Positions 10,423 to 34,654 of a stretch of DNA of 64,000 nt are shown in pieces (within the stretch, counting starts at the first letter, position 1; each line of letters begins with the position of its first letter). This DNA is from an uncultured delta proteobacterium (lineage in GTDB: Bacteria; Myxococcota_A; UBA9160; SZUA-336), in contig CAVPHD010000009.1 in NCBI GenBank assembly GCA_963704165.1, forward strand, positions 32,001 to 96,000, written 5' to 3'. The notes under the pieces are model-generated. The model saw only the letters and a list, made by a program, of their open reading frames with translations. It had not been told where the DNA came from and searched no databases. Both the position numbers and the translations under genes were made by a program.

Positions 10423-11799
10423 CTAGTTCTTCTCCCCGATCGCGCGCTCGATCAGCGCACAGATCTCCGCCGCGAGCCTCTCGATCTCTCCGCGATCATC
10501 GCCTTCGAGCATCACGCGCGCGACCGGCTCCGTGCCGGAGTAGCGCACCAGGATCCGGCCGCGGCCCGCGAGATCGCTCTCGACGCGCGCGAGCGCGCGC
10601 GACACCTCGGGCAGCGTCTCGAAGCTCGGCTTGCTTCGCACGCGCACGCCGCGGAGCACTTGGGGCGTGCGCTCCATGACGCGCGCCAGCTCGGAGAGCG
10701 GCCGTTCCTCGCGCCGCATCAGCGCCAATACCTGAAGCGCCGTCAGCATTCCGTCTCCGGTCGTGTTCTCGTCGAGGAACACGACGTGGCCGGACTGCTC
10801 ACCCCCCAGGTTGATCTTCTCGCGCAGCATCGCCTCGACGACGTAGCGATCGCCGACGTCTGCCCGCACGAGATCGAGGCCCATTCCCGAGAGCGCGCGC
10901 TCGAGCCCGAGATTGCTCATCACCGTGCCGACGACGGCGTCCCGCGAGAGCGCCTGGCGGCGCTTCATGTCGAGCGCGCACATGGCCACGACCTGCTCGC
11001 CATCGACGATCTCGCCGCGCTCGTCGACGAGGACCACGCGGTCCGCATCTCCGTCCACGGCGATGCCGACGTCTGCGCGGCACTCGCGTGCGATCGCGGC
11101 CACGTGCTCGGGGTGCATCGCTCCGCACCCGTCGTTGATGTTGATGCCGTCGGGCTGCCGGCCGACGGCGACGACCTCGGCTCCGAGCTCCTCGAGCACG
11201 GTGGGTGCGACCTTGTAGGCGGCGCCGTTCGCGCAGTCGATCGCGATCCGCAGCCCTTCGAGCGTGTGCTGGCGCGGAAACGTCTTCTTCAGGAACACGA
11301 TGTACCGGCCCGAGGCGTCGTCGATCCGCCGCGCGCTGCCGATGTCCGCGCCGAGCGCGCGCCGCGATTCGAGCTCGGGCGAGCTCATCAGCTCCTCGAT
11401 CCGAACCTCGGCGTCGTCGGGAAGCTTGAAGCCATCGCGCGAGAAGAACTTGACGCCGTTGTCCTCGAACGGGTTGTGCGAGGCCGTGATCATCGCGCCC
11501 GCATCGCAGCGCATGTCGACGGTCAGGAACGCGAGTCCCGGGGTCGGAATCGGCCCTACCTGGAGCACGTTCACGCCCATCGAGCACAGGCCCGCCGCGA
11601 GCGCGTCCTCGAGCATGTAGCCGGAGCGACGCGTGTCCTTGCCGATCAGCACGCGCGGCGTGCGGCCGCCGTTCGGTCCGAGACGGAACACGAGCGCCAG
11701 TGCGCGCCCGAGCTGCAGCATGACGTCGCCGGTCATCGGATGGACGTTCGCGCGCCCGCGAATTCCGTCCGTGCCGAAGAGCTTTCGCGATACCGCCAT
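10423..11799 (-). CDS. glmM: Phosphoglucosamine mutase
   Basis: FGTDGIRG, ITASHNP, DGDADR, GGEQSGH, RYSGTEP. Confidence 0.97.
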   Translation of the reverse strand: MAVSRKLFGTDGIRGRANVHPMTGDVMLQLGRALALVFRLGPNGGRTPRVLIGKDTRRSGYMLEDALAAGLCSMGVNVLQVGPIPTPGLAFLTVDMRCDAGAMITASHNPFEDNGVKFFSRDGFKLPDDAEVRIEELMSSPELESRRALGADIGSARRIDDASGRYIVFLKKTFPRQHTLEGLRIAIDCANGAAYKVAPTVLEELGAEVVAVGRQPDGININDGCGAMHPEHVAAIARECRADVGIAVDGDADRVVLVDERGEIVDGEQVVAMCALDMKRRQALSRDAVVGTVMSNLGLERALSGMGLDLVRADVGDRYVVEAMLREKINLGGEQSGHVVFLDENTTGDGMLTALQVLALMRREERPLSELARVMERTPQVLRGVRVRSKPSFETLPEVSRALARVESDLAGRGRILVRYSGTEPVARVMLEGDDRGEIERLAAEICALIERAIGEKN

Positions 11800-22901: not shown

Positions 22902-22975
22902 GGCGATGTAGCTCAGCTGGTTAGAGCAGGCGGCTCATATCCGCCGTGTCGGGGGTTCGAGTCCCTCCATCGCCA
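22902..22975 (+). tRNA. tRNA with CAT anticodon, most likely elongator tRNA-Met; 3' CCA not encoded
   Basis: Acceptor GGCGATG/CATCGCC+A, D-arm TAGCTCAGCTGGTTAGAGC, anticodon arm GGCGG-CTCATAT-CCGCC, T-loop GGTTCGAGTCC. Confidence 0.95.
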
Positions 22976-25380: not shown

Positions 25381-25883
25381 TCAGTCGGCGGGCCCGATCG
25401 CGCGGAGCGCGCGCAGGTCGGACTCGAAACGGGCGGCGAGATCGCCCATCGCGCCCGATCCGGACTCGAGACCCGCGCGGGCGCGCTCACACCACGGCAG
25501 CAGATAGCGCCGGCAGAGTTCCGCGACGAGCACGTCGTCCTCGCGGTCGATCGCGGCCGCAAGGGCCTCGCAGCTCGGTGCGAGGTGATCGGGCGGCAGC
25601 GCCTTGTCCTGCCAGCGGAGTCCGAGGAAGTGCAGGACGCGCATCCACTCCTCGCGGGCGTGCCCCCCTCGAGCCCGAGCGCGGCGTGAAGCAGGAGTGA
25701 GACGGTCGGCAGCGGCGCCCCGACGTGGAAGGCGGACCAGTACTCGGACTCGACGTCCGAGAACGATCCGGGCAGGCCGAGCGCCTCCCACGCTTCGATG
25801 CGCTGCTCGGCGGAGGCCAGCGGGCTCCAGATCCGCGCCCAGCCCACGAAGGGCAGCGCGGCCTCTCGGGCCGCCTGGCTCAC
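25381..25883 (-). CDS. Molybdoenzyme maturation chaperone (TorD/DmsD/EbdD-like delta subunit), frameshifted
   Basis: LPPDHL motif, YLLPW helix; last gene of the molybdoenzyme cluster. Confidence 0.7.
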
Positions 25884-26431
25884 GCGCCGAGCTCGATCCA
25901 CCCGGGCGACACCGACTTCAGGCCGCCGCGATCGTTCTCGGCTCCCTGCCAGACGGCGATGGCGAGCTGACGCCGCGCGTCGAGCACCGCCCAGCTCTCG
26001 AGCTCGAAGACGCAGGCTCCAGCGCCCGCGACTTCCACTCCGCGATCGCGCGCCATCCGGCCGGTGCGATCGCTGCGCGCGACCGTCCCGAGGCCTTCGG
26101 CACGTACACCAAAGAGCGTCTCGCGATCGGCACGCCAGAGCGCGCCCTCGACGGCCTGGCCCGGCGCGCCCATCGTCAGCCATGGGGCGTCCGCGACGAC
26201 GGGCGCGATCACGGCGGCGGCGTCGGCGAAACGATCGACGTCATGTCCGATCTCGCGCGGTGCCTCCGGGCACGCCCAGCCGAGGCGAATCCGCCAGAGC
26301 CCTTCGGACTTCGAAGCCTCGAGATCGACGACCGCGGTTCGCGGCGCGTCGCGGCCGACGTAGGCGACCGGAACGTACCCGCCCGGAGACATCCCCGTCG
26401 GCGCCGCGATCATCGAGATCTTGCTGCGCAT
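25880..26431 (-). CDS. Heme b gamma subunit of type II DMSO-reductase-family enzyme (EbdC-like)
   Basis: FADAAAV, LTMGAPG (candidate Met ligand), AVWQGAENDRGGLKS (candidate Lys ligand). Confidence 0.8.
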   Translation of the reverse strand: MRSKISMIAAPTGMSPGGYVPVAYVGRDAPRTAVVDLEASKSEGLWRIRLGWACPEAPREIGHDVDRFADAAAVIAPVVADAPWLTMGAPGQAVEGALWRADRETLFGVRAEGLGTVARSDRTGRMARDRGVEVAGAGACVFELESWAVLDARRQLAIAVWQGAENDRGGLKSVSPGWIELGA

Positions 26432-27460
26432 CAGAGCACCTCTCGCTGGCGCGGGCCGAGCGCGAAGTTCTGGTTCCAGTCGTACGCGATCAGAAGATCC
26501 ATCAGCTCGCTCGTCTCGCCCGCGCGCCGCTTTGCGCGCTCGCGCTCGAGCGTCGCGAGCACCTCGTGCACCCGCTCGCCGAAGAGGCTGACGAGATACT
26601 GCGTGGGAATGCGCGGCTCACTCGTCGGGCGTCCCTTCTCGTCGAGCTTCGGCGGGCTCATCGGCGGCACGTAGAAGACGTTCGGTCCGAGCTCGAACTC
26701 CGGATGCAGAGGCAGCGCCACGCGGTAGCCGTGAACGAGCTTCCAGATCGGCCCCTCCTCGTCGTCGAGATAGCCGACGAAGCGCAGACGGCCCGGGCAC
26801 TGCCGCGCACACGCCGGCGCGACGCCCTCCTCGATGCGCGGGAGACAGAAGATGCACTTCGTCGAGACCTGTCGCTGCGGATCGAAGTAGACCTTCTTGT
26901 ACGGGCACGCCTCGACACAGAAGCGGTAGCCGTGACAGCGGTCCTGATCGACGAGCACGATGCCGTCCTCGTCGCGCTTCTCGATCGCGTGCGCGCGGGC
27001 ATGCGTCGAGGCACGCCGGATGCGTGCAGTGGTTGCAGAGCCGCGGCAGGTAGAAGTAGTGGTTTTCCTGGGGGTAGTCGCCGGCACCGCGATCCTCGTC
27101 CCAGTTCGCGCCCCAGCGCGGCGCGCCGTCGGGTCGCAGCCACGGCTTTCCCTCGCCCTCGCCGGAGCGCTTGCGCACCGCGTCGTGATTGAAGGTCCAG
27201 GCACGCCCGTACTCGTCGTCGAGAGTGGGGATCCGGCCGGCCTTGACCTCGCCGGTTGGCGTCCGACCGCCGCTCGCATCCCAGTTCCGCGGATAGCCCG
27301 CGCCCGGGAGTGTCTCGACGTTGTTCCAGTAGGCGTAGCCGGTACCGGTGTCGGTGTTCCAGAGCTTCTTGCACGCGATCGTGCAGGTCTGACATCCGAT
27401 GCACTTGTTGAGGTCGAGCACCATCGCGATCTGTCGCTTCGACGGGTTCTCGTTCGCCAT
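26431..27460 (-). CDS. Fe-S beta subunit (EbdB/NarH-like), frameshift near 27000
   Basis: DLNKCIGCQTCTIACK, YLPRLCNHCTHPAC, CHGYRFCVEACPY, KCIFCLPR, CARQCPGR. Confidence 0.92.
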
Positions 27461-27462
27461 GT

Positions 27463-30445
27463 CTAGGCCTCCTGCGCCGCGCGGATCGCATCGACCGCAT
27501 CGGGCCTTCGGGGACGGATCGCGACTCGCGTGTCCTGGACCTGCGTGCCGGGCGCCCACACGCCGAATCGCCAGCGGAGCTGACCCTCGCCGCCGGCGAA
27601 GTGGAGCGGGTTCATCAGTCCCGGAGTCACGAACTTGTAGCTCTCGTGCTTCGGGAACTGGTGCGGCTCCCACGCGTGGAAGTAGTACGCGACCGCGGGC
27701 CGGACCATCGATCGAGTACTTCACACGCATGAAGATCAGTCCGAAGCGGTTCTCGACTTCGGCCCATTCTCCGTCCGCGATGCCGAGCCTCTCCGCATCG
27801 CGCGGGTTCAGATACAGCGCGGGTTCGCCCGCGCTGCAGGCGCAGCAGCAGCGGATCGTCGCGCCAGACGCTGTGGATGCTCCAGCGCGCGTGACAGGAA
27901 ATGAGCTGGAACGGGAGGTCGCCTCCCGCCTTCGGGCTCTCGATGTGCGACGGCAGCGCCTCGCCGGCCTCGAGGAACCATGGATGATCGATGTAGAACT
28001 GCTGTCGGCCCGTCCGCGTCGGCCAGGGCCACTTTTCCTCGGTGAAGTGGGTGCACGCGCGGAGCACGCCCTCGCCCTTCCAGGAGTCGTTGAAGAGCTG
28101 CGGCTGGCCTCCCGGGCCACCCGCCCCCTTGAACTTCTCGATCCCGGTGCGCTCGAGCCCAGCGACCGTCATTCCCTCGGTCGTGCCCGCACTGTCCAGG
28201 ATGTGCTGCATGACTTTCTCGGTGTCGCCGGGGCCGAACTCGCCATGGAACGAGAAGCGGTCTCCGATCGTCTGAAGATCGACCTCGAGCTTGCCGCAGC
28301 CCGGCGAGCACGGGCGTGCCGCGCTCGCGCGCGACGCGCTGCACCTCTTGAGCGAGGCGCCAGAAGATCTCCCACTCGTCCTTCGAATCACCGACGGGAG
28401 GAACCGCCGCGTCGCAGTAGTGGAGATACGGGATGTAGGCGACCGTGTACTTGATGCCGCGTTTCTCGTAGTAGCCCGCAGCAGGCAGCAGGTAGTCGGC
28501 GTGCATGCCGGTGAACGTGAACTTCGGATTGACGTCGACCACCAGATCGAGACCGGGCCAGAGATGCTCGAGCGAACGCTGCGGCAGATTCGAGCGCCGC
28601 AGCACGTTGTTTCCGCCGGTCACCCAGGCGCGCGCCGCCTTGCGTCGGGTAGCGCGGCATCCAGCCCTTCTCGCGCGCCTCGCGGTCGTATTCCGTGAGA
28701 GGTCGAGGATGAAGACCTGCCTGCACCTGATCCAGATCCGCCGCCACGCCCTGGTAGCCGAGATTGAAGCTCGCGGCGTTGCCGATGCACGCGAGTTCTT
28801 CGCCGGCATCCGCACCCAGCTCCCAGAGCGCGCGCTGGGCGCTGATCCGCCCGCGCACGCGCTCGACGGCGAGGTCGAAGAGCGTGGTCATGTCGAGGTG
28901 CATGAAGAGCTCGAGGCGCCCGCGCAGTCCCCGTGTGGCTCGCCGATGCCGAGCCCGCCGGTCTCGATCCAGCCGGTCGAGTGGTAGCCCGCGCCCTTGC
29001 GGCCGACGGCCCCCTTGAGCGAGAGGCAGAGGATCTTCGCGCGATTCATCTGGTCCGAGTGAAAGAAGCGGTTCGAGCCCCAGCTCGAGAGCACCATCGG
29101 GTCGCTTCGCCTTCGCGAAGCCTTCGGCGAAGCGCTCGATCTGCTCGGGCGGCGAGCCCGGTCACCTCGGCCGTCGCCGCCATCGTCCAGGGCTCGAGGT
29201 GCTCGCGCAGGAGGGAACCCACGGGGACGACGGCGGCTTCGCGTGCCGTCGCGCAGCTTCACCGCGAAGCGACCTTCGATCGGCGGCTCGAAAGCTCCGC
29301 CGTCGAGCTTCGGCACGTCGCCGTTGCCGGGAGCGCCCGGCGCGGCCACGGGCATGGCCGGACGCGGGGTCCCAGACGTACACGAGTTCGTGTCCCCCGC
29401 CCTCGCGCAGATCCGCCTCGGTCAGGAAGCGACCGGTGTCGAGCCGCACCAGGATCGGCAGATCGGTCTGCTCGCGCACGTAGGCGAGATCGATCCGGCC
29501 GGTGTCCCAGATGTGCCGCGCCGTCGCGAGCGCGAGTGCCGCATCCGTCCCCGGTTTGATCGGGATCCACTGATCCGCGTGCACGGCGGTGGCGCTGTAC
29601 TGCGGATCGATCACGACCAGCTCCGCACCGTCGTACTTCGCCTCGAACAGGAAGTGCGCGTCGGGGATCTGGGTGACGGCCGGATTCATCATCCAGACGA
29701 CGAGGTAATCGGAGAGGAACCACTCGTCGGAGCTGCCGCCGACGTGGGGGAAGCCGAAGGTCAGCGTGGCGCCGTGGTTCAGGTCGCCGATCTCCGCCCA
29801 GTCGTCGGAGAGCGTGGCACCGGCGAGGCCGAAGAAGCGCACGCGCCCGGCCGTCGTCGGCCCCTGGTCGAAGTGGGGACCGAGGTCGTGGATGATGCTG
29901 TCGGTGCCGTCCTTCTCGGCGATCGTCACGAGCTTCTCGGCGATCTCGCGCAGGGCCGTGTCCCAGGAGATCTGCTGCCACTGCCCGCCGCCGCGCGGTC
30001 CGACGCGCTTCAGCGGCACGGTGAGTCGGCTCGGACCGTACATGACCTCGGTGTAGCAGGCGCCCTTCTGGCAACCGCGCGGGTTGAAGTCGGGTACGCC
30101 GGGCTCCGACGCCGTGTAGTTCGCGGTCTGCTCCTCGCGAACGACGATGCCGTCCTTCACGTAGAGATCGAAGTTGCAGGCGCTCCGGCAGTTCAACCAA
30201 CCGTGCGTTCCCTTCGCGACGCGATCCCAGCTCCAGCGCTGACGGTAGAGATCCTGCCAGCTGCCGAGCTTCGCCGGGTTGCGTGCGACGCTCGCCCCCG
30301 CGAGATCGGCGGCGATCGCCTCCTCGCGTAGGTGGAGGAAGGGAAGGCTCCCGGCCGCGGTGGCGACCGCCGCGAGTCCCGAGAGCTTGAGGAAGTGGCG
30401 ACGGTCGAGCCAGAGGTGGCCACTTCGGCCTTCGGAACCAGTCAT
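27463..30445 (-). CDS. Tat-exported Mo-bisPGD catalytic alpha subunit, type II DMSO-reductase family (multiple frameshifts)
   Basis: DRRHFLK twin-Arg; THGWLNCRSAC...NPRGCQKG Fe-S motif; WAEIGD candidate Asp Mo-ligand; PGTDAALAL; DYLLPAAGYYEK; HARWSIHS. Confidence 0.92.
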
Positions 30446-30491
30446 GGTGTTCTCCCCAATTCGAACTCCAACTCCGGGCGCGTTCGCGGCC

Positions 30492-31175
30492 TCACGGGAG
30501 GTGCTCCGCGCGAAGGGGCGGAAGGATCTGCAGATACATACAGACCGACGCGATCGCCTCGCGCACGAAGCTCGCGTCGTCCAGCGTCTCGAAGCCCGAA
30601 CCCAGGACCCCACCCTCGAGGCGCAGAAGCAGCATCGCGCGGAGCTGCTCGAGCGCGAATCCGACCGCGAGATTCGGATCCGCGTGTCCGATCTCGTCGC
30701 GACGGGCGAGCATCAGGTTCGCGAGACGCCGACTCAGCTCATGGTGAAGCTCGAGGGACTCCGCGGCGATGGACGGATCGCTGAGCGCCAGAGCCAACCG
30801 CGCGCGCGACAGGCCCGCGTGTTGGCGGCCGACTTCGAGCGAGAATTCGAGGTAGGCCTCGAGGATCTCGGCGATCGACGCACCGTCCCACCGGACCGGA
30901 TCGACGGCGGACTGCATGGTCTCGCGGAACTCATGGCCGAGGCGGTCGAGAAGCGCGTAGATCAGACCGGCCTTGTCGCGGAAATGGTGGTAGAACGCGC
31001 CCACGGAGCAGCCCGCTCGCGCGGCGACGTCGCCCACGGCGGTGTCGTCGATGCCCTTCTCCGAGATCAGCGCTTCCGCGGCATCGAGCAGCTGGATCAG
31101 CGTGCGCCGGCTGCGCGGCTGGCGTGAGGTCCGGACCCAGCGGAGATCGGCGATCCAGGGACTTCTCGGCATCAC
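30492..31175 (-). CDS. TetR/AcrR-family transcriptional regulator
   Basis: RQPRSRRT..LLDAA, VAARAGCSVGAFYHHFRDK HTH. Confidence 0.92.
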   Translation of the reverse strand: MMPRSPWIADLRWVRTSRQPRSRRTLIQLLDAAEALISEKGIDDTAVGDVAARAGCSVGAFYHHFRDKAGLIYALLDRLGHEFRETMQSAVDPVRWDGASIAEILEAYLEFSLEVGRQHAGLSRARLALALSDPSIAAESLELHHELSRRLANLMLARRDEIGHADPNLAVGFALEQLRAMLLLRLEGGVLGSGFETLDDASFVREAIASVCMYLQILPPLRAEHLP

Positions 31176-31225
31176 CCCGCCCTTCCCGATCGACTTCCCT
31201 AACCATTCGAAATCAACTCAAGATA

Positions 31226-31281
31226 AATCAGAACCAGAACTCGGCTTTTGTATTCTGGCCGAAGCGGCGCAAGCCCGTCAA
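31226..31281 (-). promoter_or_regulatory. Candidate sigma70 promoter (TTGACG-N18-CAGAAT) with overlapping imperfect inverted repeat (candidate TetR operator)
   Basis: AT-rich patch; CCAGAA (31234-31239)...TTCTGG (31253-31258) overlaps the -10 element. Confidence 0.5.
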
Positions 31282-31945: not shown

Positions 31946-34654
31946 TCAGCCGTAGAGAACGGAGCGATGGCGCACGATCTCGCCGATCAGGGCCTCCATG
32001 CGCTCCGGATGCTCGGGCAGGCCTTCGATTCGCGCGCGGCCGATTCGGTCGCCGCCGCTCTTCGGAACCACCCACGGCTGATGGCTACCGACGGCGTCGA
32101 GCAGGCCGGAGACGTTGAGCGGCCGTTTCTCGTCGTTGCAGGACAGCAGCACGATGTCGTCGCCTTCGAGCGTGGCGAGCGAGAGGCGCGCGCCGGTGCG
32201 CAGTCTCAGTCGCCGGCCGATCTCGCCCGGATCCAGATTCGCGGGCACGCGCGCGACCGCGAGCTGGTACTCGCCGAAGTGCACCATGCGCGGGTCGTTC
32301 GCCTCGACCCAGTCGGTCTCCGCGCGATACACGTCCGGCGCCGATGGCAGATCGATCGGCTTGCCGGCGAGCACCGGCATGATCTCGGCTCGGTGTTCTC
32401 CCGGGTTCTCCGCCATTCGCTTGATCAGCGCGATCACGCGATTGCCCCACTTCTGCATGTCGGCGTCGGAAAGACGGCGCGCCGATAGATCGACGAGCTT
32501 GTCGGTGAAGCGGCTGCGCCGCTCCGTCACCTGGCTGACGGCTCCGAGCGGGCTCGTGGCGTTCTCTTCGATCACGATCGAATCCCGCCCGAGAACCGCA
32601 CGCAGGCGCTCGAGATCCTCGATCGCCCATTCGTGATGGTCAAACCATTGCAGCCGGCCGCGGAACAGCTCCGCAGTGTCGAGCACTTCTTTCGGGCGCG
32701 GCTGCGCGCTGCAGCCCACGACGAGCACGTCGACGTTCTCGGCGATGTCCGTCGCCGGTCCCTTGAAGAAGTCCATCAACCCGTCTTGCGGCGTGACGCG
32801 GAACGACACGATCGTGCGTCGGTCTCGTGCGAGTACGAGCGCGGCGAGGATCGAATCCGGATCGTCGCGGACGAGGATCGCGGCGCGCTGCCTGCGCGCA
32901 CGCGGTGGCGAGACCTCGACCGGCTCCGCGGCGGGACCCGCTTCGGGCTCCTCGTCGCCGTCGGTGAGGGTGGCTTCCAGGTCGCTCGTGAGCTGTTCGT
33001 CCAGAGCCGAGGCGGCGATGGGCGACGCCTCTTCATCGGTCGCGTCCGCGGCGTCGCGCGGTTCGAGCTCGTCATCGCGCGCGTCGCCGCGAGTCTCGGC
33101 CTCGCCCGCGATTCCGTCCGCGTCCTCGGACGTACCCAGCCGAGCTCCCTCTTCGGATCGCGCCCCGCCACCGCGCCGACCACCGCGACGTCTGCGTCCG
33201 CGACGACCCCGCGATCGCCCCGATTCCTCCTCGCCGACGGGCGCATCCGAAGCTTCCGCCTCGGGCTCGCGCTCCGCTTCGAACGAGGCCGCGTGTTCGA
33301 ACTCGCCCCCGTCGTCGCGCTTCCCTTCCGACGTACCGACGGCGAGCTCGGCCGCTCGGCGAGCTTCACGTCGGGCGTTTCGCTCCTCCGCCGCAGCGGC
33401 CGCGTCGTAGACACTCGCCGCGGCCCCGCCGGACTCGCGGTCGCCGTCGCGCCGCCGGCGACGTCCACGCCGCCCCCCGCGACGCTGCGACCGACCATCG
33501 TCTTCGCGCGTCTCGTCACCATCCAGAGCGTCGTCGGATTCCCGAGCCACCTCGGATGTGAACTCGCGCGCCGGCGCTTCCGGAAGACCGCGCTCTCCGA
33601 TCGGGCCCGCGAGTACCTCGAGGATCTCGCGCGCCTCGTCGGCGATCCCGTCCGCCGAGATGAAAATCCGCGGCGCACCGATCGCACCCGGGCTCCAGAT
33701 CTCGCGATCGAGATCGAGCAGGTGCCAGCCCGCGACCAGACCGGGGACGTCCGAGACTTCGATCCGAGGTCGAATCGCGCCGACGACGGGCCGACCCGCG
33801 ATGTCGATGCCGACCCAGTCGATCGCATCGTCTCCTTGCTCGTTCCAGGGAAGCCAGCGCGCGGTGACGCCCGCGTGCGCCTCGTCGGCACAGCGCTCCA
33901 CCAACGCATCGCGCCGGGCCGCGGAACCGTCGAGCAGCTTCGTGTCGTCTGCGAGTCGCACGACCCACTCGTGCAGATCCGCGCCAATCCGCGCGAAGCC
34001 TGCCTCGGTCGCGCGAATGGTTCGGTTCTCGGGAAGGGCGATCGAGACGACGACCTCGTCGCCCTCGACGCTGACACGCGCGGCGCGCTCGCCGCGCACG
34101 TACAGCAGGTAGCTCGACCCCGCAGGGCGAACTCCGCCGCCCCCGGAAACGGCCGAAGCGCCCTCGAGTACGCGCAGCACGCGGGCGAGCAGGTTCGTGC
34201 TGCCGCCGACGATGGAGGGCCGGGCGGGTGCGGGATGACTCTCGAGCTCGAAGGTCGCGCCTTCCTCCGCCAGCGCCGGCAACGCCAGCAGGTGCACCGA
34301 CGGACCGCACTCGGCTGCGCGCGAAGCCGCGCGCCGGGTGCGCAGAGAGAACTGCGGAGCGGCGATCAGGACCTCGTTCAAGCTGCGGCCACCACCCGCT
34401 CGGCGCGCGGCGATCCGCGCCCAGCCGAGCAGGTCGAGGCCATCCCGGCGGCTCGCGAGCAGAGCGATCGGGCGATTGCCCTGCCATCGCGCCACGCCGG
34501 CCTCCAGACCCTCCGGAAGCTCGTCGAAATTCTCCAGCTCGCGGACCTCGACCAGATCGATGCCGCGCAGATCGCGAAGTCGATCGAGCATACGTCCGCC
34601 GCCGCTGCCGCCGCGGCCGAACCAGCGACCGGCTCCCCAGCCTCGCTTCCTCAA
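31946..34654 (-). CDS. Large uncharacterised protein: folded N-domain, charged disordered linker, degenerate DHH/DHHA1-like C-domain
   Basis: Uninterrupted 902-aa ORF, GGAGGA before TTG; DDPDS and WFDHHEW motifs. Confidence 0.75.
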   Translation of the reverse strand: MRKRGWGAGRWFGRGGSGGGRMLDRLRDLRGIDLVEVRELENFDELPEGLEAGVARWQGNRPIALLASRRDGLDLLGWARIAARRAGGGRSLNEVLIAAPQFSLRTRRAASRAAECGPSVHLLALPALAEEGATFELESHPAPARPSIVGGSTNLLARVLRVLEGASAVSGGGGVRPAGSSYLLYVRGERAARVSVEGDEVVVSIALPENRTIRATEAGFARIGADLHEWVVRLADDTKLLDGSAARRDALVERCADEAHAGVTARWLPWNEQGDDAIDWVGIDIAGRPVVGAIRPRIEVSDVPGLVAGWHLLDLDREIWSPGAIGAPRIFISADGIADEAREILEVLAGPIGERGLPEAPAREFTSEVARESDDALDGDETREDDGRSQRRGGRRGRRRRRDGDRESGGAAASVYDAAAAAEERNARREARRAAELAVGTSEGKRDDGGEFEHAASFEAEREPEAEASDAPVGEEESGRSRGRRGRRRRGGRRGGGARSEEGARLGTSEDADGIAGEAETRGDARDDELEPRDAADATDEEASPIAASALDEQLTSDLEATLTDGDEEPEAGPAAEPVEVSPPRARRQRAAILVRDDPDSILAALVLARDRRTIVSFRVTPQDGLMDFFKGPATDIAENVDVLVVGCSAQPRPKEVLDTAELFRGRLQWFDHHEWAIEDLERLRAVLGRDSIVIEENATSPLGAVSQVTERRSRFTDKLVDLSARRLSDADMQKWGNRVIALIKRMAENPGEHRAEIMPVLAGKPIDLPSAPDVYRAETDWVEANDPRMVHFGEYQLAVARVPANLDPGEIGRRLRLRTGARLSLATLEGDDIVLLSCNDEKRPLNVSGLLDAVGSHQPWVVPKSGGDRIGRARIEGLPEHPERMEALIGEIVRHRSVLYG

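Follow-up and report, generated by a model that had tools for sequence, protein, structure and literature searches.

A 64,000-nucleotide stretch of contig CAVPHD010000009.1 (hereafter the window), from the genome of an uncultured delta proteobacterium (assembly GCA_963704165.1, here G000), carries a five-gene operon, tetR-alpha-beta-gamma-delta, that very probably encodes a water-dependent C-H hydroxylase or dehydrogenase. By its sequence, the alpha subunit belongs to the clade of the allylic steroid C26 dehydrogenases (S26DH) of Sterolibacterium denitrificans, and falls in an uncharacterised group that includes a protein of strain HdN1 and lies outside S26DH proper. We propose, with confidence a little better than even, that the operon specifies an S26DH-clade enzyme hydroxylating an allylic methyl of a fat-soluble isoprenoid tail with water, the likeliest site being C26 of a Delta24-sterol. 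Enzymes known to use water for C-H hydroxylation number no more than a handful, and the operon is part of a large, unexplored arm of their family. The enzyme class, the architecture and the nearest reaction are already published; we found no paper on this branch in the open-access literature, most subscription journals being outside that search.

The operon spans window positions 25381-31175, its five genes all lying on the minus strand in the co-directional order that the original prediction, made from the sequence alone, had read:

31175 to 30492, minus strand: tetR, TetR-family regulator, 227 aa, intact (PF00440, E 1.6e-15; PF17918), 46 nt upstream of alpha
30445 to 27463, minus strand: alpha subunit, with molybdenum bound by two pyranopterin guanine dinucleotides (Mo-bisPGD), FS0 cluster and twin-arginine translocation (Tat) signal (TIGR03479), about 990 aa read through nine frame breaks
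27460 to 26431, minus strand: beta subunit, four Fe-S cluster motifs (TIGR03478), 342 aa, one break
26431 to 25880, minus strand: gamma subunit of the short form seen in S26DH, a soluble heme b protein (TIGR03477, E 6e-20), 182-183 aa, three breaks
25883 to 25381, minus strand: delta, short divergent maturation chaperone of the NarJ/TorD type (weak PF02613), about 166 aa, one break
31231 to 31248, no strand assigned: candidate operator, an imperfect GAA-n-TTC palindrome upstream of tetR and putative autoregulation site

Stop and start codons overlap at the beta/gamma and gamma/delta junctions. All the motifs previously pointed out are present. The alpha N terminus (DRRHFLK) is Tat-type, and the protein carries HGWLNCRSAC...GCQKG and DDWAEIGD; its H...C...C and NPRGC align with those of the ethylbenzene dehydrogenase EbdA (the FS0 motif), and the Asp of WAEIGD aligns with EbdA Asp223, the Mo ligand. 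Beta has four Cys groups. Gamma carries LTMG and GGLKS, and its Met and Lys align with Met108 and Lys201 of EbdC, columns that we take to be the heme ligands; no 19-residue hydrophobic window of gamma exceeds 1.41, which bears out the soluble subunit that had been foreseen. Delta has PPDHL and a PF02613 match on its second half only at E 0.0018, similarly weak in 8 of 9 homologues; a delta homologue was present in 30 of 56 clustered clade loci, many of the others being cut by contig ends. TIGR03479 matched the first alpha piece with E 1.3e-116. With alpha in pieces, the best of them scores 390.8 bits against a curated cut-off of 984.75; intact alphas of the clade reach about 790-865 bits, and the characterised S25DH and S26DH also stay under that cut-off. 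The Asp ligand, FS0 motif, Tat signal, beta and gamma subunits and chaperone of a periplasmic alpha-beta-gamma enzyme of the type II dimethyl sulfoxide (DMSO) reductase family are all found. Only one type II alpha was found in the host genome.

A search with the intact N-terminal 365 residues of alpha returned 2675 matches. The best 120 of these are about 940-1020 aa long and 66-89% identical, and include proteins from metagenome-assembled genomes (MAGs) of Myxococcota, from strain HdN1 (CBL45592) and from Denitratisoma. The closest named homologues are proteins of Myxococcota MAGs, which makes the suggested Myxococcota origin of the DNA plausible. For comparison we used WP_154715926, WP_154715930 and WP_154716405, named by exact look-up, which are S26DH1, 2 and 3 according to excerpts of PMC7411048 and PMC11061730; S25DH1 was named from its source name and S25DH4 inferred from the adjacency of its accession to that of the chaperone. 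Reading the proteins through by placing an X at each break, alpha is 60% identical to the HdN1 protein, 57% to S26DH1-3, 39-40% to the S25DHs, 37% to DH8, 34% to AhyA, 32% to ClrA and 31% to EbdA. The other subunits follow: beta is 72% identical to that of S26DH1, 58% to the beta at the S25DH4 locus and 53% to EbdB; gamma is 45% identical to that of S26DH1 and 29% to EbdC; and delta is 38% identical to the fourth gene of the S26DH1 operon. Among the characterised enzymes compared, S26DH1 is therefore closest to all four subunits.

Trees were built with FastTree (67 rows, the NarG of HdN1 as root) and with IQ-TREE (LG+G4, quick; 35 of those rows), while CmdA, SerA, DdhA, PcrA and NxrA stood outside them. 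In both trees alpha groups with S26DH1-3 with a support of 100, to the exclusion of S25DH, DH8, EbdA, AhyA and the reductases. The stem of the S26DH clade measures 0.65 changes per site (SH-aLRT 100). Joining the four-row group of the window exclusively to S25DH1/4 was rejected by the approximately unbiased (AU) test (p-AU 1.3e-47), and so was joining it to the reductases ClrA and haloarchaeal NarG (p-AU 1.5e-5). Alpha is thus not nested in the NarG clade, and these results agree with the original prediction of a periplasmic type II O2-independent hydroxylase, not a nitrate or chlorate reductase. The proposed resemblance to EbdABC and S25dABC holds at the level of the hydroxylase family; the nearest enzyme is neither of these (31% and 39-40%) but S26DH (57%). 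We found no close relative with a solved structure.

The comparison with named systems supports the same placement. S26DH1-3 (DH5-7 of S. denitrificans) have in common with the window the alpha-beta-gamma-delta order (at the S26DH1 locus), a short gamma and the marks of the clade, HGWxNCRS, W[AG]EIGD and the change of the EbdA Lys450 column to Arg, which is found throughout the clade. The window differs in having a single copy and its own type of upstream TetR. The steroid C25 dehydrogenases S25DH1-4, also of S. denitrificans, are sister to the S26DH clade together with other uncharacterised paralogues, and have the same cofactors and, by motif, Tat export; in them, however, GVSD replaces EIGD, Lys450 is kept, His192 is missing and the carbon hydroxylated is tertiary. 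EbdABC(D) of Aromatoleum aromaticum EbN1 (PDB 2IVF) and the window have in common Asp223, His192, the gamma Met108/Lys201 columns and the ABCD order, whereas the window has Arg in the Lys450 column and a gamma shorter by about 24 N-terminal residues. Scored with NF042978 (ethylbenzene dehydrogenase, cut-off 2000 bits), the best alpha piece reaches 256, consistent with a clade other than that of EbdA. AhyA, the putative alkane hydroxylase of Desulfosudis oleivorans Hxd3 (WP_012173623), is a type II hydroxylase-like alpha with the Asp ligand of the window, but at 34% identity it belongs to another clade and is devoid of His192. ClrABDC (WP_013516315) and haloarchaeal NarG (WP_004056332) have the family-level architecture with a soluble heme b gamma; they are the outgroup in both trees and differ in gene order (clr ABDC versus ABCD) and in reaction direction.

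What might the enzyme do? Excerpts of PMC7411048 and PMC11061730 describe S26DH1 and S26DH2 as hydroxylating the allylic C26 with water via a cationic intermediate. By analogy, Mo(VI)=O would take a hydride off an allylic methyl and rebound would give a primary allylic alcohol, perhaps oxidised further to the aldehyde. Two electrons would leave via FS0, the beta clusters and the gamma heme and, judging from the genes of the host, could pass to a periplasmic cytochrome c and then to NirS or to heme-copper oxidases. The attack would take place at the periplasmic face of the membrane, on lipid, and the product would enter sterol side-chain beta-oxidation, making the enzyme an anoxic counterpart of a CYP125/142-like P450. 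Delta would mature alpha. Binding of a lipid ligand would relieve the repression that TetR, sitting on the upstream palindrome, would exert on its own operon. That the substrate is hydrophobic, as the original prediction had it while leaving its identity unsettled, is probable. An allylic methyl is the site we favour, if with some reserve, while a sterol as that allylic substrate seems to us possible, somewhat short of even.

The gene content of the host bears on this proposal. G000 is 84% complete and G007, a genome of the same genus, 97%; in G000 an NCBIfam scan covered 102 selected proteins (92 of the 102 listed). A cluster for sterol C/D rings and side chain on contig C11 has EchA20-, FadA6-, FadA5-, FadD3- and PRK07831-type genes above the NCBIfam cut-offs. 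A steroid-24-oyl-CoA synthetase-like gene falls just under its own cut-off (726.6 of 750), and a KstD-like gene is split. The genome also encodes a P450 with CYP125/142 as best PDB matches, an atcABC-like triple (45, 60 and 62%), NirS, three COX1-family genes and many short-chain dehydrogenases/reductases (SDRs) and other dehydrogenases. No match to KshA_C was obtained in G000 or G007, and no NarG- or NapA-like gene stood out in the G000 scans. The large C11 cluster (C11:163000-214000), with the P450 and the atcABC-like triple but no KshA match, looks like a mix of aerobic side-chain attack and anaerobic ring attack.

We surveyed the partner genes in 48 genomes sorted by locus signature, mostly incomplete MAGs in which kin are not independent and one genome may carry both types. 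The signature of S26DH proper, derived here, is Asn at the EbdA-192 column plus FxFQ/M..GG/S..F.D[NM]W before the Mo ligand. The alpha of the window lacks it, having His and RFF..GATLSDDW; this His/DDW form, seen in 93 of the best 120 of the 2675 matches, defines the window type. Nineteen genomes were of the window type and 29 of S26DH proper. Size, family and position, rather than accession, guided the choice of the desaturase and kinase queries; with these queries no S25DH, 25-hydroxysteroid kinase or Delta24-desaturase was found in G000 or G007, the best match to the kinase candidate in the host being 33%. The window type, by the counts given below, usually works without what supplies S26DH, a cascade of S25DH, 25-hydroxysteroid kinase and lyase or else a Delta24-desaturase. 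As no alkene-forming partner was found, the double bond must come with the substrate, which could be a natural Delta24-sterol, fully degradable by the host, or an acyclic isoprenoid. Phytoene-desaturase-like flavoprotein pairs, 64-70% identical to the Delta24-desaturase candidate, adjoin S26DH-proper operons at L061, L079, L057 and other loci in Myxococcota and Gammaproteobacteria MAGs.

Several results weigh against the sterol-type C26 proposal, and we gather them here. Alpha falls outside the 10-row branch of S26DH proper (support 100), and an exclusive grouping of the four-row group of the window with S26DH1-3 was rejected (p-AU 6.6e-6). The loop before the Mo ligand reads PHFD..RFF..GATLSDDW in the window and PNFD..FKFQ..GG.FADNW in S26DH. 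Even within S26DH, the literature consulted on these enzymes, in the excerpts above, gives no substrate for S26DH3. In the survey, an S25DH-like gene (at least 60%) occurred in 3 of 19 window-type genomes versus 23 of 29 of S26DH proper (13 of 19 once the ten genomes of the genus Sterolibacterium are removed), the Delta24-desaturase-like alpha candidate in 2 of 19 versus 16 of 29, the 25-hydroxysteroid-kinase candidate (at least 49%) in none of 19 versus 12 of 29, and the sterol ring marker EchA20 in 11 of 19 versus 27 of 29. The operon is not near the sterol cluster in the host, no catabolic neighbour is conserved at window-type loci, and just 2 of the 12 genomes of the genus (G000 and G007) carry it. 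Since the window-type arm is mostly devoid of the partner enzymes of S26DH, it probably has another substrate or a shorter route into sterol breakdown.

The column of EbdA His192, described as a base in excerpts of PMC7803848 along with the roles of the other active-site residues, holds His in the group of the window and in HdN1 and Asn in S26DH1-3. The AU test neither supported nor rejected monophyly of all His-type rows (p-AU 0.32). We tentatively consider that the His-type group could be the ancestral, stand-alone form of the S26DH clade, a terminal hydroxylase that works without O2 on acyclic isoprenoids or on alkenes (squalene, prenyl tails, alkenes derived from phytol or n-alkenes), would be widespread in uncultured Myxococcota and Gammaproteobacteria, and gave rise to the steroid C26 enzymes. 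If true, it would be the first enzyme of that kind for non-steroid chains, and the cultured HdN1 would make it directly testable.

The same His also allows a rather unlikely alternative, a water-dependent hydroxylase for a non-isoprenoid hydrocarbon that attacks, as EbdA does with His192 as base, the benzylic carbon of a long alkyl-aromatic or the allylic carbon of an n-alkene. The cultured carriers point this way, one of them, HdN1 (60%), degrading long-chain alkanes and the other, Maricurvus nonylphenolicus (53%), being more distant, and so does EchA20, missing in 8 of 19 window-type genomes. However, alpha is just 31% identical to EbdA and 34% to AhyA, HdN1 has KshA_C and EchA20, and the visible lipid specialism of the host includes sterols. 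In addition, excerpts of PMC3151549 report no growth of HdN1 on alkanes with N2O, which argues against plain water-dependent alkane activation. Strain HdN1, an alkane degrader, combines the KshA_C and EchA20 markers with an operon of this type, and the His-group member is its sole type II enzyme besides NarG; the operon is followed by a GH5 gene with a C-terminal PF18564 domain. The words 'steroid', 'cholesterol' and 'molybd' do not occur in the main text of PMC3151549.

Less likely again is a periplasmic enzyme that performs the second half-reaction of S26DH1 alone, dehydrogenating allylic alcohols or long-chain ones (phytol, farnesol, 26-hydroxysteroids). S26DH1 can take its allylic alcohol on to the aldehyde (excerpts of PMC7411048), and such an activity would account for the lack of an accompanying alkene-forming enzyme in the window type; S26DH2, however, is very slow at this step (excerpts of PMC11061730), and the host already has its many SDR and other dehydrogenases. 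As for a respiratory oxyanion reductase or dimethylsulfide dehydrogenase of the SerABC, ClrABC, PcrAB or DdhABC type, the same family and architecture, PcrA as best PDB match of the intact orthologue (493 bits versus 449 for EbdA, a family-level likeness) and the NCBI name 'dimethylsulfide dehydrogenase alpha subunit' of the HdN1 protein speak for it, but the identity of 32-34% to ClrA and haloarchaeal NarG versus 57% to S26DH, the rejected joint grouping, the order ABCD instead of ABDC and the failure of HdN1 to use perchlorate, with chlorate being toxic (excerpts of PMC3151549), which weighs against a perchlorate reductase, make it very unlikely. An allylic hydroxylase of the S26DH clade is our preferred reading. 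Enzymes of this kind can be produced in Thauera aromatica with a published expression system (PMC6016249), which together with the cultured carrier HdN1 puts the substrate question within reach of routine experiment. S26DH candidates in Denitratisoma DHT3 are mentioned in the excerpts of PMC8449060.

Is the operon alive? Compared with the intact genes of G007, it contains 14 reading-frame breaks, nearly all of them single extra bases:

Near 29353, 29241, 29150, 29101, 28931, 28642, 28305, 27830 and 27712, minus strand: nine breaks in alpha, placed by comparison with G007
Near 26992, minus strand: one break in beta, placed by comparison with G007
26068, 26028 and 26009, minus strand: three +1 breaks in gamma that cancel out, with about 20 residues misread and the net frame kept
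Near 25666, minus strand: one break in delta, placed by comparison with G007

These breaks are, in all likelihood, assembly errors. Stop codons are missing from the read-through frames of the operon, alpha and its intact counterpart in G007 are 90% identical, and the pN/pS ratios against G007 for alpha (0.126) and beta (0.155) lie below the median of 93 genes (0.158), as under purifying selection, with higher values in gamma (0.305) and delta (0.343). Like insertions also affect other genes: along 98 kb of synteny with G007 we counted 37 break clusters, spread over 14 of the 89 other genes in patches with clean stretches between, and 33 clusters are net insertions. Among the affected genes are several housekeeping genes, named here from their sequence as carB, acpS, lipB, lepB and adk; moaA and the KstD-like gene are also split. 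A cluster recently dead in this strain, with real frameshifts, would account for the density of 14 breaks in about 3.7 kb and for the 7.5 kb beyond thiC whose genes have no breaks bar one at the start of thiC. That the cassette can erode is seen in the G007 copy, where tetR is gone and 16 nt of delta are deleted. Nevertheless, the same patchy breaks elsewhere along the 98 kb, the splits in moaA and in the KstD-like gene, the missing stop codons and the normal pN/pS make a dead cluster improbable; real decay in bacteria is also deletion-biased. The original prediction had allowed for either outcome; we conclude that the operon is probably intact in the cell and not a dead cluster.

The regulator, which the original prediction had as sensor of the substrate, appears, from its distribution, to be an accessory that is dispensable in the family, since the corresponding G007 locus has none and a tetR orthologue (49-73%) adjoins alpha in just 6 of 19 other window-type loci, lying 5.6 kb off in a seventh; the remaining loci have unrelated regulators or none. 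In a motif search over eight upstream regions, each of the 7 other loci had a similar 18-mer ahead of its tetR orthologue, with a leave-one-out score of 147.7 versus 73-83 in 12 shuffles, a difference overstated by the relatedness of the sequences. The palindrome also precedes a paralogous tetR (G000 C5:251143) and is absent before alpha in G007, where there is no tetR. Its presence before all eight tetR genes and a paralogue fits TetR autoregulation. A regulon search with the candidate operator gave no clue to the substrate, as 13 of the 16 top sites inspected lie inside genes. One metagenome contributed a 1213-aa member of an alpha cluster that groups with alpha proteins as well as with TetR proteins of 221 aa, as would a read-through from TetR into alpha or a fusion call.

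The operon sits between thiC and queE, an interval with no NarI-like gene and no transporter gene, in keeping with the predicted absence of a NarI-like membrane subunit and of a nitrate transporter. A matching operon with 86% nucleotide identity occupies the same place in G007, which excludes chance for the feature; there, alpha starts about 90 nt after queE, tetR and its operator are missing, and a 16-nt deletion lies near the end of delta (L029:6470-6870, 11430-11515). The slot is variable: thiC and queE face each other in G002 and G009, 1.0 and 1.6 kb apart and with no operon, are separated by 8 kb of other DNA in G001, and lie on different contigs in G006 and G010. We considered thiC and queE as functional partners and rejected them, given the operon-free spacing in G002 and G009 and the other arrangements in G001, G006 and G010.

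Beside queE, an open reading frame at 31946-34654 encodes a 902-aa product that matches nothing in Pfam and whose long middle part is acidic and rich in arginine, and is kept in G007 (864 aa). A tRNA gene at 22902-22975 (Rfam RF00005, 66.4 bits), the only hit in an Rfam scan of the window, is flanked by a cytochrome c gene and msrA and lies 2.4 kb from the operon end. Genomes of the same family or class (G014, G019, G025, G032, G034, G013 and G044) carry at least five type II alpha paralogues, often in tandem with no beta or gamma of their own. Elsewhere in G000, a qNor-like gene (C4:206700-208800) has two counterparts in HdN1, to which it is 64% and 32% identical, and ends in a frameshift; it has SHNFYW (His to Asn), a mark described for putative nitric oxide (NO) dismutases, and lies near nirS (C4:213442) and nirJ/nirF-like genes that extend to C4:225000. 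A COX1-family gene of comparable length (795-aa frame) occurs in G007. By these genes, G000 looks like a Myxococcota-like denitrifier that carries a sterol P450 and a candidate NO dismutase.

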